Source: a virus (lineage: Duplodnaviria; Caudoviricetes). From it: a DNA stretch of 52,558 bases. The notes below the pieces were generated by a model. It ran no database searches and had not been told where the DNA came from. It was given only the letters and a program-made list of their open reading frames with translations. The stretch spans positions 1 through 52,558 of IMG/VR virus record IMGVR_UViG_3300020351_000002. One strand, written 5' to 3'. The position numbers were made by a program, and so were the translations under genes. Positions 164 through 13,003 of this stretch are shown here, in pieces (the first letter of the stretch is position 1; every line of letters begins with the position of its first letter).

Positions 164-1159
164 ATGGCACGTAAGAGTAAAAAGACTACCAGCAAGGCGC
201 GTACTTCATCGATTACCAGCAAGCCAAAGAATAAGACAAAGCAGATTAGGGCTACGGGCGTTCGCGGCGATGCTATCGCGAAGGGACAGGACCACGGGAC
301 GGCGATCACGGAGTTTCAGGCGATTGTGAACGGCGCTACCGCTGGCTTTCTATCTCAGGAAAGATTTGCGGACTCCGGACTGCGATCCATTGATATGAGC
401 TACGGCGCTGGATTGACTGGCAAGGGTACAGGCTTCAAGACCTTGACTACGAGGGAGGATAATCAGCCCTTGCACGTAGCAAGTTACACGATCTCCAGTG
501 TGCGCCATGATGACGGCAATTATCAGGCCACAGGAAGGCACCATTTGGCAGGGATCTGCTCAGACACTGGTAGCCCTACCGCGCAAGCAATCGCAGCCAG
601 TCTCCAGGCTTCAGTCTCAATGCGCTCTAGCATGAAGAGAGCCCGCGACCATGTTGCGAAGCTTGAGCGGCAAGGGAAGGTCAAGGCCACCAACAATGAA
701 GACCGTGAACAGGCTATCAGGGCGCGTGGTTCGTTCGTGCCTAACTCTGCTTTTGGCAAGGGTCTTATCCCTAGTTATGGGGCTGTCATGCTTGAACCAG
801 GACCAAAGCGCACCACAGGCAGCAACACCGTCTCCTATCCCCTGCCTACACTGAGCAAGGAGGGGCTCGAATACTTCGCAGACGCTATCAAGGCAGGTGA
901 CGCGATCATGCGACCTATTCAGCCCTGTTACGCGCCAAATAAAAAGCAAGCGCCAAAGACTGCTAGCAAGGCAATGCTTGCCCTGGGTCTGGACTGCGAA
1001 GGAGCGCGCCTTAGAGAGTTCCGCGCATCTATCGGCCTTGAAGGCAAGGGCTCAGCTACTAAGCACGCTCGACAGTGTCTAGCAGCGCTCGTAACGGCTG
1101 GACTGCTAGCACCCGACATGATCGGGGAAGTAGCAGCAGCTAGCGCGAAAGCCTCCTAG
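164..1159 (+). CDS. hypothetical basic protein, first early gene (331 aa)
   Basis: Long ORF with AAAGGAG RBS and K/R/S/T-rich N-terminus; no family recognised. Confidence 0.85.
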   Translation: MARKSKKTTSKARTSSITSKPKNKTKQIRATGVRGDAIAKGQDHGTAITEFQAIVNGATAGFLSQERFADSGLRSIDMSYGAGLTGKGTGFKTLTTREDNQPLHVASYTISSVRHDDGNYQATGRHHLAGICSDTGSPTAQAIAASLQASVSMRSSMKRARDHVAKLERQGKVKATNNEDREQAIRARGSFVPNSAFGKGLIPSYGAVMLEPGPKRTTGSNTVSYPLPTLSKEGLEYFADAIKAGDAIMRPIQPCYAPNKKQAPKTASKAMLALGLDCEGARLREFRASIGLEGKGSATKHARQCLAALVTAGLLAPDMIGEVAAASAKAS

Positions 1160-1160
1160 C

Positions 1161-1254
1161 AGGGGAGCGTCCTAGCAGGCTGCGCGCTCCTTGCGCGTGG
1201 CCTTGCTAGGTGCTGTTCAGTGCTCTGTCTTACAGGGTAGTGATTAGCACCTAG
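1161..1254 (+). promoter_or_regulatory. overlapping hairpins after gene 1 (terminator, attenuator or processing site)
   Basis: CCTAGCAGGC...GCCTTGCTAGG (1171-1210) and CTAGGTGCT...AGCACCTAG (1206-1254); no U-tract. Confidence 0.5.
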
Positions 1255-1266
1255 TCAATCGTCAAT

Positions 1267-1288
1267 CTTCAATCTTTAAAGGTTGAAA
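1267..1288. repeat. 22-bp palindromic repeat, copy 2 (CTTCAATCTTTAAAGGTTGAAA)
   Basis: Read directly; precedes RBS and ATG 1308. Confidence 0.95.
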
Positions 1289-1307
1289 CATTCAAAGGAG
1301 TGAAGAC

Positions 1308-1523
1308 ATGGAAGTAGCAATAAGCAACCTGAGCAGGGCAACGACTACCTATATAGCGTCCTGCGAGGAAGATTGCAGGGACAAGACGGACCTAGCCGTA
1401 TACCGGCTGTGCGTAGAGCATGACGACACCGTTGTGATGGGCCGATGTATCGGAACACCTATGCGAATCGTTGAAGACATGCGAGACACTGAGCGCAAGC
1501 GAATAGCCGAGATGGGGGGATGA
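1308..1523 (+). CDS. hypothetical protein
   Basis: AAAGGAG RBS; tightly packed with the next gene. Confidence 0.75.
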   Translation: MEVAISNLSRATTTYIASCEEDCRDKTDLAVYRLCVEHDDTVVMGRCIGTPMRIVEDMRDTERKRIAEMGG

Positions 1524-1524
1524 C

Positions 1525-1884
1525 ATGACCGAGGACAACGACAGATACATAGTCACCATATACGGAGACGGGGATTGCATTACGCGATTCGCTAAGTACG
1601 GCAGGCAAGGGCACATCGAAGCCATTGAGTCGGTGGATTGGGAGGTACATAACAAGCATGCAAGGCGTGCGACCGTAGAGCGAGAGCTACCAGGGGGCGA
1701 GCTAAAGATGGTCTACGAGCGGGAGCAGGACACCTATGAGGTGACCGGGGTAGACCGATCCGGCAGGCGATTTAAGCAAGCATATAAAAGCAAGTTTTTC
1801 GCTATGGGAGTCAACCTATGGCGAGGCAGCGTATGGCATGTGCGAGACGGGAAGCGAAAGCTGATCAAGCGAGTAACCAACTAA
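1525..1884 (+). CDS. hypothetical phage protein
   Basis: Coupled to the previous gene; stop lies 5 nt before repeat copy 3. Confidence 0.8.
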   Translation: MTEDNDRYIVTIYGDGDCITRFAKYGRQGHIEAIESVDWEVHNKHARRATVERELPGGELKMVYEREQDTYEVTGVDRSGRRFKQAYKSKFFAMGVNLWRGSVWHVRDGKRKLIKRVTN

Positions 1885-1889
1885 CAACC

Positions 1890-1911
1890 TTTCAACCTTT
1901 AAAAGTTGAAA
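1890..1911. repeat. 22-bp palindromic repeat, copy 3 (TTTCAACCTTTAAAAGTTGAAA)
   Basis: Read directly. Confidence 0.95.
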
Positions 1912-1929
1912 GCCAAAGGAGGAGAGAAA

Positions 1930-2172
1930 ATGGAAGGCTTACCAGTTTGGATCGTGGCCTATGGCGAAGCATATCAAGGGTACACGGTCGCCCCAGAAAT
2001 ACCTGCTCGCACTAGTTACATAGCGCAACAGATAGCAGCGCGAGAGTATGCAGAGGAAAGTCTTATATGGGGAGATGAAGTTATGACGCGGGAAGATCGC
2101 GAGGATGGATCGGTAATGTGGTCAAAGGGCTGTGATCGCGTCTACCTGCTTCCCTTGCGAGTGGAGATCTAA
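1930..2172 (+). CDS. hypothetical protein
   Basis: AAGGAGGAG RBS supports ATG 1930 rather than the TTG inside the repeat. Confidence 0.8.
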   Translation: MEGLPVWIVAYGEAYQGYTVAPEIPARTSYIAQQIAAREYAEESLIWGDEVMTREDREDGSVMWSKGCDRVYLLPLRVEI

Positions 2173-2174
2173 AG

Positions 2175-2196
2175 TTTCAACTTTTAAAAGTTGAAA
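2175..2196. repeat. 22-bp palindromic repeat, copy 4 (perfect: TTTCAACTTTTAAAAGTTGAAA)
   Basis: Perfect inverted repeat 2 nt after a stop codon. Confidence 0.95.
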
Positions 2197-2219
2197 GCTG
2201 GCAGGGAAGGGGAAATCCA

Positions 2220-2402
2220 ATGCCAATTTGGAATGAAGAGAGGCTAGATCCTGGCATCGATCTACGCCGCCAAAATGCGACGATTAGAGCACGGCTAAGC
2301 CGACAACGGATTACAGATCCACAGCCGATATGTGAAGCAAACGAGTCACCGCGAATCAACACGGTGATCGATTCTCAATCTTTAAAAGTTGAAAGGGAGT
2401 AG
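2220..2402 (+). CDS. short hypothetical protein or gene remnant reading through repeat copy 5
   Basis: GGAAGGGG RBS; the C-terminal SQSLKVERE is encoded by the repeat and the next RBS. Confidence 0.5.
   Translation: MPIWNEERLDPGIDLRRQNATIRARLSRQRITDPQPICEANESPRINTVIDSQSLKVERE
2373..2394. repeat. 22-bp palindromic repeat, copy 5 (TCTCAATCTTTAAAAGTTGAAA)
   Basis: Read directly. Confidence 0.95.
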
Positions 2403-2406
2403 AAAA

Positions 2407-2808
2407 ATGACACGCACGAAAAGGATAAAGGTCGTCAGAGATATGGCCCAGCGCATCCGATATGTCTGCGACACGCAAAGCATCTATCGTTTTCGCGACA
2501 TCGAAAGCACCATCAGGAAGCAAGAGCGCCAACACCGCAAGGGCTACGGGGCCAGTGGATACCGGGAGCCAGTCGCCGTCGCCGTCGATTACTTCATTGT
2601 TCGCTGCTTTGCCGACGCATTCCGGGTGGTGCGAGATACCGAAACGGCGCGGGATGTGCTGGATAATCTCGGTGTTCGTCTTGATTACCTGATGGCGATC
2701 TCCGTGGTCGCTCAATATGAAGCCGAGATCACCTCCTCTGTCCACGTTGGCGACCTAATGGAAGCCGCAGACACCCTCGACTATTCAGACGACATCGCGC
2801 GCAGATAG
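2407..2808 (+). CDS. hypothetical protein
   Basis: GGGAG RBS directly after the repeat; ATG 2407. Confidence 0.8.
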   Translation: MTRTKRIKVVRDMAQRIRYVCDTQSIYRFRDIESTIRKQERQHRKGYGASGYREPVAVAVDYFIVRCFADAFRVVRDTETARDVLDNLGVRLDYLMAISVVAQYEAEITSSVHVGDLMEAADTLDYSDDIARR

Positions 2809-2819
2809 CGGCGATGAAC

Positions 2820-2841
2820 TCTCAACCTTTAAAGATTGAAA
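2820..2841. repeat. 22-bp palindromic repeat, copy 6 (TCTCAACCTTTAAAGATTGAAA)
   Basis: Read directly. Confidence 0.95.
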
Positions 2842-2853
2842 AGGAGCAACGGC

Positions 2854-3081
2854 ATGACTGAAGCACAACTCACCTCAATTAAGAGGCTCGTCTCTACTTA
2901 CAACTCAACCTTAGAGCACACCAGTGTCCTGCATGACATAGACGGTACCGGGATTATGGGCCTACCACCTGGATGGATCCTTGTGAACGTGTGCCGAACC
3001 GAGGTTGGCAAGCAGCCACACCAATGCAATTCGATAATCGTACAGGCTGGCATCGCTCCCGATGGCAGCGTCTCAACCTAA
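2854..3081 (+). CDS. hypothetical protein
   Basis: AAGGAG RBS abutting the repeat; ATG 2854. Confidence 0.8.
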   Translation: MTEAQLTSIKRLVSTYNSTLEHTSVLHDIDGTGIMGLPPGWILVNVCRTEVGKQPHQCNSIIVQAGIAPDGSVST

Positions 3082-3088
3082 CAATAAT

Positions 3089-3102
3089 TCTCAACCTTTA
3101 AA
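3089..3102. repeat. left part of a split repeat copy (TCTCAACCTTTAAA)
   Basis: Right arm is absent here; a matching right arm GATTGAAA lies at 3474-3481. Confidence 0.8.
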
Positions 3103-3279
3103 AAGTCGGGCCTGTCAGTCTCTCACGAGGCGGGCGGCACGGTTCGTATATTCACGCCAAAGATGTCTAAGTTTGATGTCGTTGCCGGATGGAGCGACTG
3201 CAAGGGCGGGCGATTCGTTGTCAGGGAGACAACGAAGTCCGCGTAACTGCCCAGCGATGGGCAATGGAAGGAGAGAGAG

Positions 3280-3489
3280 ATGACCATTAGTCAAGTTGAT
3301 CGAAGCACTGTGAAGATGCTCCTTGATGAGGCGGAGGAGGCTCTGGGCCGAATCGCCATGAGGCACGGCATCGTCGTGTCTAGGAAGCACTGCACATACT
3401 CCAAGACCGAGGTCCCCGTGGCTTTCAAGTTCGTCATCCCTGAGAGGGCCGAGGACGGAACGGCTATCGACCCGATTGAAAAGGAGTGA
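3280..3489 (+). CDS. hypothetical phage protein, probably C-terminally truncated
   Basis: AGGAGAGAGAG RBS; last codons (IEKE*) come from the repeat right arm and the next RBS. Confidence 0.7.
   Translation: MTISQVDRSTVKMLLDEAEEALGRIAMRHGIVVSRKHCTYSKTEVPVAFKFVIPERAEDGTAIDPIEKE
3474..3481. repeat. right part of the split repeat copy (GATTGAAA)
   Basis: 3474-3500 matches 2834-2860 (copy 6 arm plus RBS/start) at 24/27 nt. Confidence 0.75.
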
Positions 3490-3493
3490 AGGC

Positions 3494-3784
3494 ATGACTG
3501 GATACGCATGGGTGATCACAAGGGACCGTATTGATGGCGGCATGGAAAATGGAACGGTCGGATCATGGAAAGCGGCGCTAAGTGCTGCCGAGATCCGTTC
3601 GAGCGAAGGCGGTGAGCGGTTCTCGATGTACGACGACGACGGGAACTGTTGCTACGAGGGGATCTTTGTAGGCGACGACGATGCCACCGGGTTCGAGCCT
3701 CTCAAAGACTTCGGGATACCGAACGCGGGGTGCACAGAAATACGCTACCGCAACCCGAACACCGGGAAGATGGAGCGTCTCTAA
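3494..3784 (+). CDS. hypothetical phage protein
   Basis: AAGGAG RBS, ATG 3494; YDDDG..YEG and GCTEIRY motifs typical of small phage early proteins. Confidence 0.8.
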   Translation: MTGYAWVITRDRIDGGMENGTVGSWKAALSAAEIRSSEGGERFSMYDDDGNCCYEGIFVGDDDATGFEPLKDFGIPNAGCTEIRYRNPNTGKMERL

Positions 3785-3785
3785 A

Positions 3786-3807
3786 ACTCAACCTTTAAAG
3801 ATTGAAA
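3786..3807. repeat. 22-bp palindromic repeat, copy 7 (ACTCAACCTTTAAAGATTGAAA)
   Basis: 1 nt after a stop codon. Confidence 0.95.
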
Positions 3808-3814
3808 AGAAGAC

Positions 3815-4129
3815 ATGAATAACGAACACAAGCCTAAGCCACGGCGCTCGCCGTGGAGAATCCATCGCCTTGAAAAAGGCTTTGAGATCTTTTGGAGAGA
3901 CGACGGCGATGGGGTCGAGTCTTACACTTACGTCGCAACAGCCCGCCAACACAGCAACGCCAGACGCATAGCCGCTGCGCCTGAAATGCTGGCTGTATTG
4001 GTGGCGGCGCGGGCAAGCATCTCCGACGCCCTGAGCCCAGACCCGTCGACAGACTGGAGAGACAGCCTAACCGACGCACTAGACGCAATTAACGCAACCA
4101 TTAACGACGCAACCAAGGAGGAAGCATGA
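3815..4129 (+). CDS. hypothetical phage protein (NARxIAAAPE-type motif)
   Basis: NARRIAAAPEMLAVL motif is common in phage early hypothetical proteins. Confidence 0.8.
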   Translation: MNNEHKPKPRRSPWRIHRLEKGFEIFWRDDGDGVESYTYVATARQHSNARRIAAAPEMLAVLVAARASISDALSPDPSTDWRDSLTDALDAINATINDATKEEA

Positions 4130-4623
4130 ACTTCGCAACATACCTACCCATACCACCAGACCTTCTAGAGCTTCCCAAAGCCACGGCGATTCGTGGCTGG
4201 ATAGGGCTAGACCACCGACTGCTAGATGGCACACGGATCAGACCGAGAATTAGGACAGCCGTGAACGCTATCGCATGGGCGCAGGCTGGGGGCACGGCCC
4301 CTATGGTTGTCCAGGAAGGCTACGTCACACGCAAGGAAGGCGAGACGACTCACACAGCAGAAGAGTTTGTGGAGCAATACCGTCGATCACGCGAAGAGAT
4401 AGACATTCTGATCTACGAGGTACGAACTGCCGCGGGAGCAAGTATAGGCATACCCGTAGCAAAGGACGCAGCCGACAGCGAAGAGGGCAGGATAGAGCTT
4501 GTCATGTCGATGATTGACAAAAACCTGCTCATTGAACTGGGATTAACGATCACTCTCCTCAGAGAGGAGCGCGGCCCGCGATACAGGGCAAAAAACTTTC
4601 AATCTTTAAAGGTTGAAAGCTAA
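4126..4623 (+). CDS. hypothetical protein reading through repeat copy 8
   Basis: ATGA overlap and AAGGAGG RBS; C-terminal FQSLKVES is encoded by the repeat. Confidence 0.75.
   Translation: MNFATYLPIPPDLLELPKATAIRGWIGLDHRLLDGTRIRPRIRTAVNAIAWAQAGGTAPMVVQEGYVTRKEGETTHTAEEFVEQYRRSREEIDILIYEVRTAAGASIGIPVAKDAADSEEGRIELVMSMIDKNLLIELGLTITLLREERGPRYRAKNFQSLKVES
4597..4618. repeat. 22-bp palindromic repeat, copy 8 (TTTCAATCTTTAAAGGTTGAAA)
   Basis: Read directly. Confidence 0.95.
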
Positions 4624-4644
4624 AAGCACCTTGCACATGTCAGG

Positions 4645-4673
4645 TTGACAGCCTGCAATCTATAGAGTAAGGT
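4645..4673 (+). promoter_or_regulatory. sigma70-type promoter
   Basis: TTGACA (4645-4650), N17, TAAGGT (4668-4673); the -35 lies in a small TGTCA-N3-TGACA dyad. Confidence 0.65.
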
Positions 4674-4702
4674 ATACACTCAACGTCAAGGAAGGGGTTC
4701 CA

Positions 4703-5542
4703 ATGACACCAATAACAAACAAGGGCGTTCGCTCTGTAATTGTCTGGCTCGGTTTTGATCCAGACAGTGACGATTTAATAGACAGCCTCCGATACACCAA
4801 GAGCGGAAGGCTCAGGCGGCTGTTTGGCAAGAACTTCAAGTGTGAGATGGGGGAATTGCAGGCTGTACTGACTGCGGTATTACACCTGTCGCCATGGAAA
4901 GAGGCTGGCTTCAATACCTGCGCCTTTGCTGGGGCATGTGCCGAGGTCTGCATCAAGACGACCGGACAGTGCGTGACAAACACGGCGCTTCGCTCTCGCA
5001 TCTGTAAGACGCTCTACTTCTTTCTATTCCGAGAGGAGTTTCTCGATCAGTTGCGGATGGAGATTCGCCAGCACATTTACATGGCGAAGATCAAGGGCAT
5101 GCGAGCAGCTATCAGGCTGAACGCTACGAGCGACATTCTATGGGAGCGCACGGGGATCATCGATGAGTTCCCAGAGGTGCAGTTTTACGACTACACGAAG
5201 ATCCCTTTAGAGAAGCGCAACCCACCACCTAACTACCACCTGACGTTCAGCCTAAGCGAGGACCCGAAGTCTATGGGTAGGGCCTTGTCGTATCTGGAGG
5301 CGGGACACAACGCCGCGATGGTAGTGCAGACGCTTGACGGGATGAAGAGGGGCGACGCCAAGAGGGCATCCCAAAGTCTTGTGGAGGCTGGCTCATGGAA
5401 CGGATACCCAACCTTCTCTGGTGATAACAACGACATCAGGTTTTGGGATCCACCGGGAAGCTGGATTGTCCTGTACGCCAAGGGACCGGCGACAAAGGAC
5501 ACCTCTGGGTTTGTTCAACGCCTACCAATTATCAACCTTTAA
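4703..5542 (+). CDS. GP88-like phage protein (Cys-cluster, radical-SAM-like)
   Basis: NTCAFAGACAEVC, RLNATSD, QFYDYTK and NYHLTFS motifs characteristic of the phage GP88 family. Confidence 0.8.
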   Translation: MTPITNKGVRSVIVWLGFDPDSDDLIDSLRYTKSGRLRRLFGKNFKCEMGELQAVLTAVLHLSPWKEAGFNTCAFAGACAEVCIKTTGQCVTNTALRSRICKTLYFFLFREEFLDQLRMEIRQHIYMAKIKGMRAAIRLNATSDILWERTGIIDEFPEVQFYDYTKIPLEKRNPPPNYHLTFSLSEDPKSMGRALSYLEAGHNAAMVVQTLDGMKRGDAKRASQSLVEAGSWNGYPTFSGDNNDIRFWDPPGSWIVLYAKGPATKDTSGFVQRLPIINL

Positions 5543-5551
5543 AGATTGAAA
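5530..5551. repeat. 22-bp palindromic repeat, copy 9 (TATCAACCTTTAAAGATTGAAA)
   Basis: Its central TAA is the stop codon of the GP88-like gene. Confidence 0.95.
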
Positions 5552-5566
5552 CCAGAAGGAGGAAGC

Positions 5567-5740
5567 ATGAGTGAAGACGAATACATTTACATAAGCGTAA
5601 AGCTCTACCTCAAGGCAGGGCAAACGATGGAGTCTGTCCAAGAGATCGTGCAGGAAATGGACTACTCGTTTGCTCACAAGGAGTTGGTTGAGCATGAAAT
5701 CATAGAGATAACGGACACATCCATAGAGGGGGAAGTATGA
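5567..5740 (+). CDS. hypothetical acidic protein
   Basis: AAGGAGG RBS, ATG 5567. Confidence 0.75.
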   Translation: MSEDEYIYISVKLYLKAGQTMESVQEIVQEMDYSFAHKELVEHEIIEITDTSIEGEV

Positions 5741-6015
5741 GCAACATAAGGAGAATGTTCGAACTTTCCACCGTGCATGTTCCGGGGCCCGATCCCGACT
5801 GGGGCGACCTGAAGGTCAAGGACCATGAGTATGGGTGGGTCGTCTGGGTCTACGACCCCGACGACAACCTGTCGCCTGAATGGATGAAGCCGATCATGAA
5901 GTTGGCCTACAGCAAGAACTGCGCCCTCATCTTGTTCGACTCTGACGCTGGCGAGTGGGAGGACACCGAACTGCACAGCCTAACGCAGTTCCAAGATCTC
6001 TGGGAGGAAGTATGA
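5737..6015 (+). CDS. hypothetical protein, DUF5983-like
   Basis: LSTVH, EYGWVVW and ILFDSDA motifs; ATGA overlap. Confidence 0.6.
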   Translation: MSNIRRMFELSTVHVPGPDPDWGDLKVKDHEYGWVVWVYDPDDNLSPEWMKPIMKLAYSKNCALILFDSDAGEWEDTELHSLTQFQDLWEEV

Positions 6016-6272
6016 GCAATCTATCCCCTGACTGGGGGAACTACTACGGCACCTGCATGGACTGCGGAGGGAGGTACCACGCTAGTGGTACGGAGCATTG
6101 CAACTGCGAAGAGTGTGAGAGATGTGAGGGAATCACAGCACCTGACGACCTGGACGAAGGGACCTGTCTTGGGTGCTGGGAAATGGGAGATGTGTGCTGC
6201 CCTGTCTGCAAGGAGTGGACGTTTAAAGAGCACCTTGAAGATGGGGCTTGCCCCGACTGTGTAACCCATTAA
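6012..6272 (+). CDS. Cys-rich putative zinc-binding protein
   Basis: Several CxxC pairs; GGAGG RBS; ATGA overlap. Confidence 0.75.
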   Translation: MSNLSPDWGNYYGTCMDCGGRYHASGTEHCNCEECERCEGITAPDDLDEGTCLGCWEMGDVCCPVCKEWTFKEHLEDGACPDCVTH

Positions 6273-6277
6273 CAGAC

Positions 6278-6299
6278 CTTCAACCTTTAGAGATTGAAG
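6278..6299. repeat. 22-bp palindromic repeat, copy 10 (CTTCAACCTTTAGAGATTGAAG)
   Basis: Slightly degenerate; 5 nt after a stop codon. Confidence 0.9.
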
Positions 6300-6320
6300 G
6301 CGTAGAAAGGAGAGGAAGGC

Positions 6321-6647
6321 ATGGCCGCTGTGGACAATGAATATATAAGCGCTCGAATTGCCGAGATAAGCGTCAGAGAGAAGGTCTCTGGCCTTAAAAA
6401 AACTATTGAAAGAGAAACCAAAAGAATAGAGGAGGCTGCACAGGTCGTTGATATGCAAATACAACAGCTATTAGAGGATATGAAGGGGGGCGACCCTTGT
6501 TCCGCTAACAGCTGGGGAGAGCCAGGTTTTAGGGCAATGCGTCAGGAACTAGACAGGCTTTATGGAAAAGTAAACTTTTACTCCGGGATGATGATGTCCC
6601 TAAGTCTGGTGAGCAACCACATAGACGTTCATTGGAAGGGGTTTTGA
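6321..6647 (+). CDS. hypothetical coiled-coil protein
   Basis: AAGGAGAGG RBS; helical heptad pattern. Confidence 0.8.
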   Translation: MAAVDNEYISARIAEISVREKVSGLKKTIERETKRIEEAAQVVDMQIQQLLEDMKGGDPCSANSWGEPGFRAMRQELDRLYGKVNFYSGMMMSLSLVSNHIDVHWKGF

Positions 6648-6648
6648 T

Positions 6649-6867
6649 ATGGGTCCAATATCAATGAGTCTAGTAACAGCAAAAAGGATTGAGACATTTC
6701 TAAGCTGGCACCTTGAGGCTGGTACTCCAGAGTTTATGAGGCCCGAAAAGGTTGATAGGGAGTCCGCAAAGAACCTTCTTATTACGATAAGAGAGGCTCT
6801 TAGGGAGCTGGATGAGAACGAGTCTCTGTGGATCGAGATTGGTGTTGGTCCAGAGGGGGCTGGGTAA
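6649..6867 (+). CDS. hypothetical protein
   Basis: Tightly packed in the operon. Confidence 0.7.
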   Translation: MGPISMSLVTAKRIETFLSWHLEAGTPEFMRPEKVDRESAKNLLITIREALRELDENESLWIEIGVGPEGAG

Positions 6868-7034
6868 TGGATTACTGCAACATTACCGAAGTTGAAGAGT
6901 GCGATCAGTGCGACCGAGCCAGCAGTGGCCGAGAGTATGGATTCAAGTGCGAAGCCAATCAGTGCGGGAACTGTGGCGACACCTACCGGGACTGCGAAGG
7001 CTCTTGCAACAACGGCTGCTCAGGGGCTTCCTAA
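6867..7034 (+). CDS. small Cys-rich protein
   Basis: TAATG stop/start coupling at 6865-6869; multiple Cys. Confidence 0.6.
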   Translation: MDYCNITEVEECDQCDRASSGREYGFKCEANQCGNCGDTYRDCEGSCNNGCSGAS

Positions 7035-7043
7035 ACAGAGAGG

Positions 7044-7253
7044 ATGGACAGCGGCATGACAGTTATAGAGCTGGCTGCGTACAGGAAAGCAAAGTACGGG
7101 GACACAGAGGAACGGGATGAGGGTGTGATCTACAAATGGACTTGTTGCGTATGCAAGTGCTTTGCCTACAAACTGCTTGAGGACATCCCAAAAAAGTGTC
7201 CCGTCTGCAGGAGTTATATAGACCAGATAGAGGTTTATGAAGGAGATGAGTGA
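7044..7253 (+). CDS. rubredoxin-like zinc-ribbon protein
   Basis: WTCCVC...KCPVC pattern. Confidence 0.65.
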   Translation: MDSGMTVIELAAYRKAKYGDTEERDEGVIYKWTCCVCKCFAYKLLEDIPKKCPVCRSYIDQIEVYEGDE

Positions 7254-7624
7254 TGCCAGGAAAACTACTGAAGACAGAAGAAGAAGAGGCTGCTTTCGTT
7301 AAGGACTACGAAAAGCTGGTGTCCGTCAAAGACCTTGCTAAGAAGTGGGGGTGTACTCGACAAACAGCGAGCGCATCACTTAAGAGGCTTGGTGTTAAGG
7401 TCCAAAGGCCGCGAGGGAAGGATGCCAATGGCCGAAACTGGAAGGGCGACTACCACCCAATGCTTGGCAAGTGGCCAGACTCTTTGGTCGCAAAGGACAT
7501 ATTGCTAAGGACTGGTAAGAAGGTTTCCAGAGCGGCTGTTTGTCAGGCTAGAAAGCGAAGAGGGATCAAGGCACTGTCAGAAGCACAGCATGAAGCCATG
7601 AAGGCCCGGATAGACGGGGGCTAG
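7250..7624 (+). CDS. putative double-HTH DNA-binding protein
   Basis: SVKDLAKKWGCTRQTASASLKRLG and LGKWPDSLVAK...VSRAAVCQARKRRGI HTH-like segments. Confidence 0.7.
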   Translation: MMPGKLLKTEEEEAAFVKDYEKLVSVKDLAKKWGCTRQTASASLKRLGVKVQRPRGKDANGRNWKGDYHPMLGKWPDSLVAKDILLRTGKKVSRAAVCQARKRRGIKALSEAQHEAMKARIDGG

Positions 7625-7641
7625 ACAGCGAGACCCTCTCA

Positions 7642-7914
7642 GGCTAGTTTCAACCTGTCGCCAAGACGAGGTCTTACCCAAGACCCTCATGGCCTCAAAG
7701 CAGCGTCCACCTGGGCCTTCTCCCCCCTTCCTCCGGGTGGGCGCTCTTTGAAGGCGATACCCCGCAAAGCAAAGCCCCCCATGGCTAAAACCAAGGAGGG
7801 CTTGCCGGTGCCTGCCAACAGTGTGGCGAACCACAAAGGTTCAAATGGCTGGAACCATGCAACAAAGCAGGGGACTCGCAAGAAAACCTGCTTGGTGCGT
7901 AGTAGAAACTAGCC
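7642..7914 (+). ncRNA. candidate structured ncRNA A (~273 nt), class unknown
   Basis: Perfect closing helix GGCTAGTTTC (7642-7651)/GAAACTAGCC (7905-7914) enclosing several hairpins; G-U pairs favour the + strand. Confidence 0.6.
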
Positions 7915-7921
7915 AAAAGCA

Positions 7922-7951
7922 TTGACGAGGGCAAGGTAGTGAGCGTAGCCT
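7922..7951 (+). promoter_or_regulatory. possible promoter between ncRNA A and B
   Basis: TTGACG, N18, TAGCCT. Confidence 0.35.
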
Positions 7952-7984
7952 CGCATCACTGCTCCACCAAAGAGCAGCCATAAT

Positions 7985-8263
7985 TTTCCGTCGTGTGGCC
8001 CCTGTTCAAAGGGCGAAACTGGCGGAGAAAGGACGCGCAAGAGGAGCCCTGCTCCGAGTTTGAACCCACCAGAACACAAGGTCTTATCAAGGCTTATGGC
8101 TTCGACAAAGAAGTCGCAAGGTCAACAGGTAACAACGCACCCCCGCCTGTTAAGTGCTCTGAGGGAAAGACCGCCTATCTAAAAGTGACCAGGATAGGAA
8201 TGGTTGAAACGCGCAGTCCAAAGGTGACCCAACCTAGCAAGGGTCACAGGATGGGGGTGCGTT
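7985..8263 (+). ncRNA. candidate pseudoknotted ncRNA B (~280 nt), class unknown
   Basis: Loop AACGCACCCCC (8134-8144) is perfectly complementary to GGGGGTGCGTT (8253-8263); many local stems. Confidence 0.55.
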
Positions 8264-8284
8264 TGGGGGGTAAGAGTTGGTCGT

Positions 8285-8313
8285 TTGACCTTTGAAACAG
8301 GTCTCTATATTAT
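8285..8313 (+). promoter_or_regulatory. sigma70-type promoter for the recombination module
   Basis: TTGACC (8285-8290), N17, TATTAT (8308-8313). Confidence 0.7.
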
Positions 8314-8427
8314 TGATTTTGTCAGTGTCTTACTGGCGTTGGGGCGTTAGTTATTTAAGGCGGGACAGTTGTTGTCCTGTCCGCAACCAATGATGGCGAT
8401 TGTCATCATTTTTTAGGAGAGAGAGAT

Positions 8428-9423
8428 ATGCCTGCTTATTTTGAAACTGGAATGTACGTTGGTGCCACCCCCTGGCACGGTCTTGGAACCTATGTTGGTG
8501 AAGAGGGTCTTAGGACGAAGGGTGCTTTAAAAAGAGGGGACCTCCTCTGGACTGTGAGCAAGCGGCCTTTGTTTACGGTACCGGAGGGCGGTGCCCTTGC
8601 GGCAGCGTCCATGCCGTCTGTCTGCCTGGAGGACTACCGGGCAATCATGCGGGACACCGACAACTCTGCATATGGGATTGTGAAGAAGGACTACACGCTC
8701 TTCCAGAACGAAGAGATGGGTGCCTTCGCAGACGATCTTATTGACGACGGCAGCCTGCGTATCCACACCGCTGGGTCGCTTAACGGTGGTCGTCAGGTGT
8801 GGTTGCTTGGCAAGGTTGGGTCTACCGAGATCATCCCCAAGGACAAGGTAGACCACTACCTCTTCTTGTATACGGGGCACGATGGGTCTACAGCCTTCCG
8901 CTGCATGTTCACAACGGTGCGTGTGGTTTGTGCAAACACGGCTGCTGTTGCACTGCGGAACTCTCGCGGGCAAAGCGTCAGCATTCGGCACACGAAGAAC
9001 ATGTCGCTTAAGTCTGGCGAGGCTGCTCGTGTCCTGGGCATTTCTCAGAAGGCATTTGCTGAGTCGGATGAGTTCATGCGAAAGCTTGCCGATGTTCCGA
9101 TGCCTCAGTCTGACTGGATTGATTTCTGCATGGAGCTATTCCCCACCCCGGTGGCAGACGAGGACGGCAATGTAAGCAAGCGTGCCATGTCTATCTCGGA
9201 GAACAACCGAAGCCAGCTGACGCGCCTGTTTGTTGGTGGTCGAGGTACTGAGATCCCAGGGGTTCGCGGAACTGGCTGGGCTGCATACAACGCACTAACT
9301 GAGTTCGCTGGCTATCACCGCACATCTCGCGGTGGCAAGGGCAAGCGCTTTGAGTCTCTGATGATGGGCTCTGGTGCGAAGTTCGTTCAGAACGGTACGA
9401 ACATCCTTCGCGGACTCGTTTAG
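8428..9423 (+). CDS. DUF932 family phage/plasmid-like protein (TIGR03299-like)
   Basis: PWHGLG, TAGSLNGGRQVW, HDGS, VRVVCANT, IRHT and GTGWAAYNALTE motifs. Confidence 0.9.
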   Translation: MPAYFETGMYVGATPWHGLGTYVGEEGLRTKGALKRGDLLWTVSKRPLFTVPEGGALAAASMPSVCLEDYRAIMRDTDNSAYGIVKKDYTLFQNEEMGAFADDLIDDGSLRIHTAGSLNGGRQVWLLGKVGSTEIIPKDKVDHYLFLYTGHDGSTAFRCMFTTVRVVCANTAAVALRNSRGQSVSIRHTKNMSLKSGEAARVLGISQKAFAESDEFMRKLADVPMPQSDWIDFCMELFPTPVADEDGNVSKRAMSISENNRSQLTRLFVGGRGTEIPGVRGTGWAAYNALTEFAGYHRTSRGGKGKRFESLMMGSGAKFVQNGTNILRGLV

Positions 9424-9424
9424 T

Positions 9425-9446
9425 TCTCAACTTTTAAAGGTTGAAA
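9425..9446. repeat. 22-bp palindromic repeat, copy 11 (TCTCAACTTTTAAAGGTTGAAA)
   Basis: 1 nt after the DUF932 stop and before the nuclease RBS. Confidence 0.95.
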
Positions 9447-9458
9447 AAGGGAGGGTTC

Positions 9459-10370
9459 ATGGAACTGCTAACGCAGACAGAGCTAGTCACGTTCAGCCGA
9501 TGTGAAGAGCGCCATAACATTCGCTACAACAGGCGGCTTACTCCCTTTGAGGAGCATCCAGCCTTGGCGATGGGAAGCGCTGTCCACGAAGGGCTTGAGC
9601 ATGGCTCAGTGAAAGCTGCGTTAGCGGTCATGGACGCCTCTGGAGACAGTGAATGGCCTGGATCGAGCGCGTCTGACAGGGTGCGCCGGTCCCAGGTCGC
9701 AGCCATGGTCGGAGGCGCTTTAGAGCGGTGGTCCTGCTGGCCTGACAAACACGAGGTTCAGTTTGAGATACCTCTCAGGCACCCGGACACAGACGTTCAT
9801 AGCGCAGAGCACAGGCTTAGCGGTGTGTTTGATGGTGTCTGGGAGGGGACCTACCCAGGGATGCCTGGAGAGTGGGTGTTGGGGGAGTGGAAGACTGCAT
9901 CCATTGTAAATAGGGACTATATCGCCCGTCTTGAGATCGACTTTCAGGTAACCACTTACTTGTACGCAGCGAGCGTCCTGTACCAGAGACCTGTTAGGAA
10001 GATGGTCTATCGGGTGATTAAAAAGCCAACGATTAGGCAGAAGAAGACAGAGAGTGCGAACGACTATGCAGAGCGCGTCCGCTTGGACTATCTGGAGAGA
10101 CCAGAGCACTACTTCTTTGATCAGGTAGTGACGCGAACAGATGCCCAGTTAATCGAGTGGAAGCGCCAAGCATGGGCCACGCACAGGAGAATACTTGAGA
10201 TTCAGAGAGGCGAGGCTGTGGCCATAAGGTCTACACAGTCCTGTCTGAGCAGAGGACGGTGCCCATACTTTGATCTTTGTACTGGTTCCGTCATAGAGAG
10301 CGCCTACCGGCGACTAAACACAAAGCACAGAGAGATTAAGAAGGAGAATAACAATGGGAATGATTCCTAA
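9459..10370 (+). CDS. PD-(D/E)XK exonuclease, AddB/Cas4-like (probable Fe-S cluster)
   Basis: FSRC, GSAVH, GVFDG, EWKT, QVTTY and C-terminal CxxxxxCPYFDLC; GGGAGG RBS. Confidence 0.85.
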   Translation: MELLTQTELVTFSRCEERHNIRYNRRLTPFEEHPALAMGSAVHEGLEHGSVKAALAVMDASGDSEWPGSSASDRVRRSQVAAMVGGALERWSCWPDKHEVQFEIPLRHPDTDVHSAEHRLSGVFDGVWEGTYPGMPGEWVLGEWKTASIVNRDYIARLEIDFQVTTYLYAASVLYQRPVRKMVYRVIKKPTIRQKKTESANDYAERVRLDYLERPEHYFFDQVVTRTDAQLIEWKRQAWATHRRILEIQRGEAVAIRSTQSCLSRGRCPYFDLCTGSVIESAYRRLNTKHREIKKENNNGNDS

Positions 10371-11088
10371 AGAGCCGACTCCGCCAAGCACTAGGATGGC
10401 GGATTATTCCTGGCTCTTCTACGGCAACGTAGGAGTTGGGAAGACAACATTGGCAAACCAGTTTCCTAGTCCAATATTTGTTGCAACGGAGCAGGGGACA
10501 ACGGCAATGCACGCTGCGTCTATTCCAGTGGGAAGCTGGGAAGACCTTAAGCTTGTGCTTGAGGCTCTCAGGACAGAGAAGCACGCTTACAAAACCGTCA
10601 TCCTTGACACCGTTGATGTGGCCTACGCGCTCTGTTCCACATATGTGTGCGAGGCAAACGGGTGGACCGATGTTTCCGATGGGGATTTTGGCCTGGGCTG
10701 GCGAGCGCTTGGGAGGGAGTGGACGAACATGATCGCCAAGTTAAGAACGCTGCCCATGTGTACGGTGTTTATCGGCCATGAGAAGTCTGAAGAAATTGTT
10801 GAACGAATTGGATCGAAGAACATGGCGACCGGGCGACAGAGGATTACTTCAGCGCTGCCCAGAAGCGCTAGGGCGACCTTGCACGCGGCCATGGACTTCA
10901 TTCTTCGCTGTGAGCTGACAGAGGATAACGAAAGGATCCTAAGGACTCAGCCAATCGAGAACAAGAGAGAGCGAATTGAGGTTAAGGCCCGTGGACACGA
11001 AGGGGCAATGCTTCCAGAGGTGGTGGAGATGAGCTTCACCTCTTTACAGGGGGCTTTTAAGAACAGCTTTGTTAAGGAGCAAAAATGA
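10354..11088 (+). CDS. AAA_24 / Sak4-like recombinase ATPase
   Basis: Walker A GNVGVGKT, Walker B VILDT, FIGHE; sits between a nuclease and an SSB. Confidence 0.85.
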   Translation: MGMIPKEPTPPSTRMADYSWLFYGNVGVGKTTLANQFPSPIFVATEQGTTAMHAASIPVGSWEDLKLVLEALRTEKHAYKTVILDTVDVAYALCSTYVCEANGWTDVSDGDFGLGWRALGREWTNMIAKLRTLPMCTVFIGHEKSEEIVERIGSKNMATGRQRITSALPRSARATLHAAMDFILRCELTEDNERILRTQPIENKRERIEVKARGHEGAMLPEVVEMSFTSLQGAFKNSFVKEQK

Positions 11089-11603
11089 CTACTGAAATCG
11101 AAGACATCTTCAACAACATCTCCCCCCCCGAAGAAGCTGATGGTGGGTCTAGAAAAAAGCGCCGAAAGGACGACGCGGATAAGATCCCAGACGGGGTCTA
11201 TCAAGCAAAGATTGTCGAGTTCTCAACCTTCCACAAAGACGACGATTACGGTAACCGGGACTACTTTACGGTCATGTGGTTTCAAGTAACGACTGGGCCA
11301 GCTGCGGGTGCAGAGGTTCAAAGCTTTTCATCCGTAGGCCCAAAGTCAGTACCGTTTATCAAGAGAGCCATTAAAAAGGTTACTGGTAAGGAGCCGTCCT
11401 GGTCTGATCTCTACGACAAGGAAATGGGATCGACTGGAAGCATTCAGTTCAAGCTTGTTGGAAAGCATGTTGAGATCCAGCAAAAGACCAATGGTAAGTA
11501 CGCGAACATCTACATAAACAAAGTCATCGACAGTTCGGGCGAACAAGGCTCAGCCTCGCCAGCAAACGACGACAGTGACAGGAATGTAGACGATTTATTC
11601 TAG
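11085..11603 (+). CDS. single-stranded DNA-binding protein (DUF669-like)
   Basis: IPDGVYQAKI motif, acidic C-terminal tail ending DDLF, position after the Sak4-like gene. Confidence 0.75.
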   Translation: MTTEIEDIFNNISPPEEADGGSRKKRRKDDADKIPDGVYQAKIVEFSTFHKDDDYGNRDYFTVMWFQVTTGPAAGAEVQSFSSVGPKSVPFIKRAIKKVTGKEPSWSDLYDKEMGSTGSIQFKLVGKHVEIQQKTNGKYANIYINKVIDSSGEQGSASPANDDSDRNVDDLF

Positions 11604-11607
11604 GAAT

Positions 11608-11846
11608 CAGCGCACGCTCCTTCCAAAGGCCCGTAGCTTCTGTGCGCTGTACCCACGACATGCCAAGTATGTCTTGAAGAAGTTCAGGTCTATGCCTGCC
11701 GGGGTCGAGCTAGGACTCGACAGGGTTAACGGACACCTGCTTAGAAGGTGGTCAAACCGGCATCTTCATTTCCGTAGAGGGGGTTGGGTATTTACTTCTT
11801 TCTACCAACTCCCTTGCAGTCACCCGCACAGGGAGGCACAGCGGGC
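11608..11846 (+). ncRNA. candidate structured intergenic RNA C / leader
   Basis: Consecutive stems: CAGCGCAC/GTGCGCTG, GACATGC/GTATGTC, GTCGAG/CTCGAC, CACCT/AGGTG, AGGGGGTTGG/CCAACTCCCT, CCCGC/GCGGG. Confidence 0.4.
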
Positions 11847-11890
11847 GGAAGCATCAGGTGCCTCAACTAACAACCAACCAGGAGAGAAAC

Positions 11891-12421
11891 ATGAAGACGG
11901 TTGACCCAAAGGATTACCGCTCCCTTTCAATGTGGGCGATTGATCTTGTTAGAAACAACCCATCGATGACAGCAGAGGGCTTTGATGACGAGTGTCAGAG
12001 GTGGGGAGTTGTTTGTGGCAGAGGTCCTTTTTACAAAGGCGTAAAGGCATACAGGGAAGAGCATGGGCTTGGAGCGCTTCCTCGCGGCGGGAAGCTGACT
12101 GGCAAGGCCCCGAAGCCAGCGAACTACCAGAGCGAAGGACAAGATGTCTTAGGCGGAACGACTAGAGGCCCAGAGAGGAGGCTTGTTAGGGGTGGGGCTG
12201 TTGCTGTTGAACAAAGTTCCAACGAGCTGGTCTCCAGGAAAGACAGGCTTATCCTTTCCGAGATCAATGAACACGCCGCCAGAATGATTGCCTGGATGAG
12301 GAAGTACAATGTAAGGGTTATCACCATGGAGTCGGAGAGCCAAGAGGTAACCCTCTCTAACGAGCCGTCCGTCAGTCGTCAGATTGTCCCCTCTCCACAC
12401 TTCACAGTCCAGAAGAAGTAG
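11891..12421 (+). CDS. hypothetical protein
   Basis: AGGAGAG RBS, ATG 11891. Confidence 0.8.
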   Translation: MKTVDPKDYRSLSMWAIDLVRNNPSMTAEGFDDECQRWGVVCGRGPFYKGVKAYREEHGLGALPRGGKLTGKAPKPANYQSEGQDVLGGTTRGPERRLVRGGAVAVEQSSNELVSRKDRLILSEINEHAARMIAWMRKYNVRVITMESESQEVTLSNEPSVSRQIVPSPHFTVQKK

Positions 12422-13003
12422 GTGGTCAAAGTGCAAAACGAAGGAGAGCTTCTTGCCAATCCAGGCCCCGTGGAGGCCGATGTCCACTGCGACAGAACCC
12501 TGGAAAGACCAAAAGGCCGGTCCTTGCGACAGGCAAGGGAGGACCTTATGGCTAACATCGACAAAGGGGTTGTGTGCCCCTGCTGTGGGCAGCTGGCCAA
12601 GGTCTACAAAAGAAAACTCAATAAGAAGATGGCCGAGTGGCTTGTCTGGCTTGTGGGTAAATACCTACACAGTACCGGGCACATACCCTCCAACTGGATA
12701 GACGTTAAAGAAAGCCGGGTTAGAGGAGGAGATTACGCGAAGCTAGCTCTTTGGGGTCTCGCGAAGAGGAAGCCCGTCGAAGAGGGGGCTAAGTCAAGAA
12801 CCTCTGGCCTATGGAAGCCAACCCCAATTGGAATCGACTTTGCCATTGGCAGAAGACGGGCCCCGTCACACCTGTTCGTCTTCAACAACTCTGTTGTGGG
12901 CGAGTCAGAAACCACCATCTCAATAAAAGAGGCTATGGGAGAGGGGTTTGACTATCAGGACGTTTACTACTGGAGCAGCGGGGAGGACATAAGAACGCCA
13001 TGA
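12422..13003 (+). CDS. hypothetical protein with CPCCG zinc knuckle, possible winged-helix DNA-binding protein
   Basis: CPCCGQ..KVYKR and SGLWKPT motifs; start uncertain. Confidence 0.75.
   Translation: MVKVQNEGELLANPGPVEADVHCDRTLERPKGRSLRQAREDLMANIDKGVVCPCCGQLAKVYKRKLNKKMAEWLVWLVGKYLHSTGHIPSNWIDVKESRVRGGDYAKLALWGLAKRKPVEEGAKSRTSGLWKPTPIGIDFAIGRRRAPSHLFVFNNSVVGESETTISIKEAMGEGFDYQDVYYWSSGEDIRTP

Follow-up and report, generated by a model that had tools for sequence, protein, structure and literature searches.

A conserved structured RNA in the early region of an uncultured marine phage, possibly the 3′ domain of a larger two-domain RNA

Introduction

Bacterial and phage RNAs that exceed 500 nt and possess complex conserved folds are very few, and each of them has pointed to unusual biochemistry. 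The ROOL RNA is exceeded in length and complexity only by rRNAs, GOLLD and group II introns (Weinberg et al. 2017, PMC5737381), and both ROOL and GOLLD are often located near tRNAs (PMC5737381). GOLLD, ROOL and OLE are reported to form RNA-only homo-oligomers (PMC12286853). Smaller phage RNA structures have been catalogued as well. The catalogue of Fremin et al. 2023 describes motifs of 29–151 nt, each required to occur in at least three distinct IMG/VR regions (PMC10690425), and the motifs of Aca1 and Aca2, HTH regulators able to bind RNA structures of the operon to which they belong, are described as short 5′-UTR hairpins upstream of the operon (PMC13551039).

The candidate RNA considered here, ~630 nt in length, would share several features with ROOL and GOLLD: a length above 500 nt, several multi-stem junctions, pseudoknot-type contacts, carriage by phages, and neighbouring genes that give no clue to a cis-regulatory role. 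It differs from both in matching neither covariance model, even at E-values up to 10, in belonging to a genome record that lacks tRNA genes, and in its occurrence, as seen here, at no more than four loci, all in one marine phage clade. The motifs of Fremin et al. are likewise intergenic phage RNAs and were found by covariation in the IMG/VR collection from which the window was taken; however, the RNA described here is ~630 nt long and was found in only two IMG/VR records. Like the Aca1 and Aca2 systems, it combines, within the early region of a phage, a small helix-turn-helix (HTH) gene with a neighbouring conserved RNA structure, but here the RNA, of ~630 nt, follows the HTH gene on its 3′ side, and the Pfam match of the HTH protein is weak. 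We found no literature description of this RNA or of any RNA beside DUF932 genes, and a fragment of it may be present in the PMC10690425 catalogue. We place it, as a new family unrelated to the others, among the known large structured phage RNAs without an assigned function. One more unrelated example, this time from uncultured marine phages, would enlarge the small set of such long and complex RNAs.

Genomic Context

The window, by which we mean the whole stretch of DNA analysed, is the IMG/VR virus record IMGVR_UViG_3300020351_000002 of 52,558 nt, estimated by CheckV to be 97% complete. Its genes encode an SU10/P22-like portal and adaptor, a DnaB helicase and a Dam methylase, and we describe the phage as uncultured, marine and podovirus-like. 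The structural arm also contains a 2574-aa ORF (19431–27155, minus strand). Positions 164–13003 form a rightward run of small early genes, in which a gap of ~800 nt between genes (7625–8427), devoid of a long conserved ORF, contains the RNA region.

The gene upstream of the gap (7250–7624, plus strand) encodes an HTH protein of 124 aa with a weak match to Pfam HTH_23, and its stop codon lies 16 nt 5′ of the conserved RNA block. In three related loci (L002, L011 and L003), an HTH homolog immediately precedes the RNA or what is left of its 5′ part. The downstream gene (8428–9423, plus strand) encodes a DUF932/TIGR03299 phage/plasmid-like protein, assigned by domain match, and is followed by genes for a PD-(D/E)XK nuclease and then an AAA_24 ATPase.

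The DUF932 gene possesses its own expression signals. A promoter predicted earlier at 8285 was recovered by our scan as a sigma-70-like site, TTGACC-N17-TATTAT (8285–8313, plus strand), located 3′ of the RNA; its TTGAC and TATATT elements are kept in L011, L012 and L002, and also in L003, which lacks the 3′ domain of the RNA. A conserved mRNA leader (8360–8414, plus strand) comprises hairpins at 8360–8384 and 8390–8409 followed by a U run, and directly precedes the Shine-Dalgarno sequence (8415–8419) and the ATG at 8428; it is conserved in L011, L012, L002 and L003. Since the U run shrinks from six to four to three residues in the window, L011 and L003, respectively, we read the hairpin 8390–8409 as one for translation or stability and not as a canonical terminator.

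A riboswitch or 5′ leader of the DUF932 gene was considered and rejected: the conserved promoter 8285–8313 lies between the RNA and the gene, and promoter and leader persist together in L003 without the 3′ domain.

DNA divergence between the window and L011 reaches ~24–30% in the HTH gene and the RNA and only ~9% in the DUF932 gene, which suggests a mosaic join near the DUF932 promoter. In four other loci, L004, L005, L007 and L008, a distant HTH homolog (28% identity; e.g., L008:5041–5388) is situated downstream of DUF932 and not upstream; these loci lack the RNA, and the HTH/DUF932 module is rearranged.

Homologous Loci and Distribution

Retrieval with the DUF932 protein yielded eight viral loci, one carrying the RNA (L002), one with a 5′ remnant (L003) and six with nothing similar. 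In L002 the gap region is present over its full length, at 72% identity. In L003, all that remains of the RNA is its first ~140 nt, accompanied by the DUF932 promoter and leader, and the six remaining loci have a short gap with no similarity to the RNA. A metagenome DNA-pattern scan added two further loci, L011 and L012, the latter truncated at its 5′ end and beginning at window position 7742. The three homologous loci that carry the RNA (L002, L011 and L012) are 70–72% identical to the window, and this identity is patchy, with invariant blocks alternating with variable ones.

Within the 3′ domain (7986–8263, hereafter domain B), L002 and L011 are distinguished by a single substitution and by a tandem duplication of 36 nt present in L002, and L012 differs from L011 at 19 positions. 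As L002 and L011 are near-identical, the alignment comprises only three effective lineages (the window; L011 with L002; L012), all from marine metagenomes, and all covariation counts given below rest on these three. The duplication in L002 (L002:2262–2300) begins at the 3′ strand of the candidate pseudoknot described below and includes a T-to-G change. Either an assembly artefact or true variation could account for it.

Further searches did not extend this set. The RNA region was unmatched in a blastn search against phage GenBank records, and the best DUF932 protein match in those records is only 33% identical, so that the phage has no cultured relative there. A search with the HTH alignment found two loci, both on contigs already known; DNA-pattern scans of viral contigs returned known contigs only, plus six chance matches without nhmmer support; and a pattern scan of prokaryote genomes gave 20 matches, none of which (0/20) was related according to nhmmer. 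Among the whole records of five related phages, one matched, over 65 nt only. The element is absent from the related phage G004, whose record is 97% complete and whose DUF932 protein is 51% identical; it is therefore dispensable for this phage type.

Coding Potential of the Region

In the window, the region overlaps ORF 7993–8295, 100 codons long and starting with GTG, which the original prediction had named as the competing interpretation should it be conserved as a protein. It is not: the homologs contain stops, and codon periodicity is lacking. L002, L011 and L012 each have several stops in all three forward frames across the aligned stretch, and +1 and −1 indels break the window frame. Counted by codon position, the differences that separate the window from L011 number 27/32/37, with no third-position excess, compared with 19/16/55 in the DUF932 gene and 29/17/45 in the HTH gene. 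The predicted 100-aa product belongs to no Pfam family. A decayed remnant of a protein gene would fare no better, as decay would not yield the 16 doubly compensated base pairs described in the next section. We consider the chance that the ORF is, or was, a protein gene to be negligible.

Secondary Structure of Domain B

All of the stems that had been proposed for the window are present there on sequence inspection: TTCCGTC/GGCGGAG, GGACGCGC/GCGCAGTCC, GGAGC/GCTCC, GGCTTC/GAAGTC, CCTATCT/GGATAGG, GTGACCC/GGGTCAC and GGTCTT/AAGACC, as well as the hairpin AACAGGT (8124–8130)/GCCTGTT (8145–8151) with its loop at 8131–8144. Taken alone, the window sequence folds only modestly better than its shuffles (z of −2.34 on the plus strand, with 3 of 200 shuffles as good; z of −1.27 on the minus strand), and the case consequently depends on the homologs. 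In these, eight of the proposed stems are upheld by compensatory or wobble changes or by invariance, and one, GGTCTT/AAGACC, is unsupported.

Applied to the four sequences, RNAalifold gave 83 pairs, and in 17 of these both bases had changed in a compensatory manner. Our curated model of 7986–8263 contains 82 pairs, arranged in ten nested helices and one loop–tail helix; 97.9% of its 326 cells are paired, and 16 pairs are changed on both sides. When the 3′ partners were slid by 1–3 columns as a control, 38–47% of the cells paired and 0–3 pairs were compensated. For four of five measures, including pairing, compensation and covariation score, none of 500 shuffles reached the observed value. The window and L011 differ at 44 places in paired columns, and 37 of these differences leave both sequences paired. 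Column-shuffled alignments gave z-scores for domain B of −7.2 on the plus strand and −4.5 on the minus strand, with 0/60 shuffles as low on either strand. G-U pairs occupy 45 of the 326 cells, and the same pairs read on the minus strand are 84.7% paired compared with 97.9% on the plus strand; the G-U cells therefore assign the RNA to the plus strand. The conserved and strongly structured non-coding RNA that had been predicted here is thus borne out by the consensus fold, the slid controls, the column shuffles and the strand bias of G-U pairs, and we are highly confident that the region is a conserved structured RNA on the plus strand.

In the comparative model, domain B consists of a 5′ stem-loop (P1), followed by a core closed by the long-range helices 8028–8029/8262–8263 and 8031–8038/8211–8219. 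The core holds a junction of P3, P4 and P8, a second junction of P5, P6 and P7 inside P4, and a 3′ hairpin, P10. Both junctions are backed by covariation.

P1 (7986–8027, plus strand, as are all helices of the model) has the form TTCCGTCG.../...TGGCGGAG with an inner GCCC/GGGC stem; its 15 pairs include two compensated and two changed on one side, and 98.3% of the cells are paired. The adjoining closing helix comprises only two pairs (8028–8029 with 8262–8263), both of them changed on both sides, from AA:UU in the window to GG:CC in the homologs. P2, which encloses the core, joins GGACGCGC (8031–8038) to GCGCAGTCC (8211–8219) by nine pairs. L011 and L012 differ in it by four transitions in one strand (8031–8038), all of which keep the pairing (G:U/A:U, U:G/C:G); in the window, P2 adopts a shifted register with one bulge.

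Inside P2, the hairpin P3 (8043–8055, GGAGC-NCU-GCUCC) has five invariant pairs and a first loop base that is C, A or G. P4 (8066–8077 with 8154–8165; 10 pairs, four compensated) encloses the next three hairpins. P5 is a local hairpin, AGGTCTT-ATC-AAGGCTT (8079–8095; 8079–8085 with 8089–8095), with seven pairs, two compensated and 100% of cells paired. It replaces the long-range GGTCTT/AAGACC helix, one pair of which is C-A in the homologs as judged by eye. P6 (8098–8115, GGCTTC/GAAGTC) has six pairs, two of them compensated (U:A to C:G), and P7 (8124–8151, AACAGGT/GCCTGTT) has seven, with one compensated (A:U to G:C) and one changed on one side. The 14-nt loop of P7 (8131–8144) presents CGCACCCCC and is invariant apart from one base.

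The remaining helices lie on the 3′ side. P8 (8169–8205) pairs GACCG (8169–8173) with TGGTT (8201–8205) by five pairs, one compensated, and encloses P9, a hairpin of CCTATCT (8175–8181) and GGATAGG (8191–8197) with seven pairs, one compensated. P10 (8224–8247, GTGACCC/GGGTCAC) carries an invariant loop with CCTAGCAA and is the local minimum-energy fold in all four sequences; its basal pair changes from G:C to A:U. MAFFT shifts the 5′ arm of P10 by one column, which is a misalignment. Many unpaired bases in the junctions and loops are also invariant, for example, GTCGCAAGG, GAGGGAAAGAC, GTTGAAAC and CCTAGCAAGG.

Candidate Loop–Tail Pseudoknot

The feature that had drawn attention to this region is the complementarity between the loop of P7 and the 3′ tail of domain B (8253–8263). 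The loop segment AACGCACCCCC (8134–8144) is indeed exactly complementary to GGGGGTGCGTT (8253–8263) over 11 bp in the window, where it forms the longest perfect helix in 7985–8275; dinucleotide shuffles contained a perfect helix of 11 bp in 3 of 300 cases and of 9 bp in 34 of 300. The homologs keep the inner part of this pairing and lose the rest. The nine pairs between CGCACCCCC (8136–8144) and GGGGGTGCG (8253–8261) are retained, with no covariation among them, whereas the outer two are lost: the tail of the homologs reads ...GCGCC while the loop keeps AA. The two terminal tail bases, TT in the window (8262–8263), covary instead with 8028–8029, their partners in the closing helix.

The candidate helix is complete (9/9 bp) in L011 and L012 and has eight of nine pairs in L002, with an A-G mismatch; eight pairs never vary. 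Neither strand varies among the window, L011 and L012. The calculated duplex energy is −22.4 kcal/mol for the window, −20.3 kcal/mol for L011 and L012, and −15.5 kcal/mol for L002. This helix had been predicted to cross two others, of which GGACGCGC/GCGCAGTCC is supported and GGTCTT/AAGACC is not; in our model it crosses P2 and P4, both supported. RNAalifold offers a competing partner for the G run of the tail, namely the C run in the 5′ arm of P10.

As no pair in the loop–tail helix covaries, the alignment is compatible with a pseudoknot rather than proving it, and on these sequence comparisons we judge its existence somewhat more probable than its absence. If formed, the invariant P7 loop would pair with the invariant G-rich 3′ tail over 9 bp, and the resulting helix would stack end-to-end on the 2-bp closing helix, locking the fold. 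A compact domain of ~280 nt with such a clear and testable candidate pseudoknot would suit structure work.

5′ Domain, Linker and Possible Transcript Unity

A second conserved block, domain A (7640–7955, plus strand), precedes domain B and is conserved in L002 and L011, and in L012 from 7742 on. It contains a long hairpin (7694–7754) with a pyrimidine-rich loop and further hairpins at ~7769–7805 and 7823–7834. The consensus fold of domain A has 12 of 101 pairs compensated, with many of its long-range pairs broken in the window, and a column-shuffle z-score of −5.9. In the long hairpin, a C:G/U:G/U:A series runs through the window, L011 and L003, and three smaller hairpins have two compensated pairs each. 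The invariant block 7640–7663 is complementary to the invariant block 7929–7950; this would-be closing helix shows no covariation.

The latter block overlaps a promoter proposed at 7922–7951, which our scan does not find. Because its spacer is invariant in the four sequences apart from one base, the conservation of 7922–7951 suggests that something other than a promoter, or additional to one, constrains this block.

The two domains are separated by a linker hairpin, CTGCTC/GAGCAG, followed by a U-rich run (7959–7977, plus strand), which the scan reported as terminator-like and in which two of six pairs are compensated. We rejected it as an intrinsic terminator: its counterpart in L011, L012 and L002 has a weak stem (UUACUC/GAGUAA) and a broken U run, and a single transcript is therefore favoured. 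The suggestion that domain B forms one RNA with domain A is hence plausible, both halves being conserved in the same loci and the linker hairpin being too weak for a terminator; we think it probable that the two share a transcript.

Direct contacts between the domains are less clear, since in the window the long-range helices, both those inside A and those joining A to B, are poorly preserved. The pairing of GTTTCAACC (7647–7655) with GGTTGAAAC (8202–8210) was discarded as unsupported because 8202 covaries with 8172 in P8 instead, and the other A–B helices proposed by RNAalifold have 2–5 broken pairs each. An internal duplication giving rise to A and B was also rejected, the local alignment score being reached by 19 of 300 shuffles.

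The window scan revealed no convincing promoter or terminator bounding the RNA, and the RNA may thus never exist apart from a polycistronic mRNA. By eye, we noted a sequence not flagged by the scan, TAGACA-N17-TAGTTT (7622–7650), which overlaps the HTH stop codon. In the general form TAGACA-N17-TAGKTT it recurs in L011 and L003, with both hexamers and the 17-nt spacing intact and a spacer of differing sequence. It may be a weak promoter of the RNA and, if so, would place the start near 7657.

Comparison with Known RNA Families

The original prediction could not assign this RNA to a known family, and our searches agree: an Rfam 15 search of the whole window gave no matches at gathering scores. 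The unmatched families include GOLLD, ROOL, OLE, HEARO, raiA and group I/II introns, as well as RNase P, tmRNA, 6S and self-cleaving ribozymes. With the threshold relaxed to E-values up to 10, there were five chance-level matches in 7500–8500 of the window, eight in L011 and three in L003, and no family recurred at the homologous place in these three sequences. One of these, a "6C RNA" match on the long hairpin of domain A in L011, was dismissed as chance-level (E-value of 6.1). ARAGORN predicted neither tRNA nor tmRNA genes for the 52.5-kb record.

A self-splicing intron was rejected as well, as both flanking genes are complete and no intron model matched. The DUF932 protein aligns from residue 1–9 in all eight related loci, and the HTH protein aligns over residues 1–116.

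Possible Role of the RNA

The reading we lean towards, by a modest preference, is that 7986–8263 is the 3′ domain of an uncatalogued, two-domain folded RNA of ~630 nt that has its own role and is not a DUF932 leader. Such an RNA would span 7640–8263 on the plus strand of the early rightward arm, between the HTH gene and the DUF932 promoter. It would be made early in infection, either by read-through from the upstream early genes or from the weak promoter at the HTH stop codon, and would work through its three-dimensional fold. As has been proposed for other large phage RNAs, it might serve as a scaffold, bind a protein partner, or be self-assembling or catalytic. Whether it acts in trans is, in our estimate, evenly balanced. 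A stronger claim, that it represents a new class of large "ornate" two-domain phage RNA of ~630 nt with a pseudoknot-locked 3′ domain and sophisticated biochemistry, made early in marine phage infection, we regard as unlikely; its biochemistry could then involve catalysis, capture of a ligand or protein, or RNA-only self-assembly of the ROOL/GOLLD kind. A further large RNA from uncultured marine phages would show that early regions of environmental phages still hide large RNA genes out of reach of catalogues of motifs of up to 151 nt (PMC10690425).

Two alternatives have to be weighed against an RNA with its own role. The region could be a cis-acting intercistronic element of the early polycistronic mRNA and never a separate RNA, in which case it might stabilize or process the upstream message, block exonucleases or Rho, or modify RNA polymerase or ribosomes for the downstream genes. 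This would fit the start of the RNA 16 nt after the HTH stop codon with no scan-level promoter upstream, as well as the failure of the scan to find a terminator after domain B. It would also fit L003, where only the first ~140 nt are kept directly behind the HTH gene, as expected for a 3′-end element, and the DUF932 leader hairpin and U run, which read-through transcripts would meet. However, ~630 nt with two multi-helix junction domains and many invariant unpaired bases go far beyond what known stabilizers and antiterminators require. Among these elements, put of HK022 is ~70 nt long and EAR is ~120 nt. DUF932, moreover, has its own promoter. We consider a purely cis-acting element doubtful, and, were it real, it would be an unusually elaborate intercistronic regulator.

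The second alternative links the region to a replication origin, either as a structured primer RNA or as a DNA element with operator or iteron sites or single-strand initiation hairpins. Primers of the ColE1 RNA II type are structured transcripts, a few hundred nt long, that contain a G-rich segment and adjoin replication functions; the likeness of the RNA described here is by position only, as no origin, antisense partner or RNA–DNA hybrid site was identified. The region stands at the head of a recombination/replication module (DUF932, PD-(D/E)XK nuclease, AAA_24 ATPase), its 3′ end is G-rich, and TAGCC-like motifs recur by eye in the conserved blocks of the window. L003 bears five to six GTAGCCTAC-like direct and inverted repeats at the same place. 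The window itself, however, has no iterons or tandem repeats and no AT-rich unwinding stretch (its GC content here, 0.53, is like that of the rest of the genome), and GC skew shows no feature at this site. The strand-specific G-U pairs and wobble intermediates, moreover, indicate selection on RNA and not on duplex DNA, with which a primer RNA would be compatible. An origin-linked function appears very unlikely to us.

The repeats in L003 (L003:3690–3820) replace most of the RNA and include a 16-nt inverted pair; judged by their sequence, these GTAGCCTAC-like repeats look like operator or iteron sites.

In addition, conserved C runs occur in or near loops at 7727–7732, 7776–7781 and 8140–8144, and the loop of the long hairpin of domain A contains CCUCC. 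Such C runs could pair with purine-rich ribosome-binding sites.
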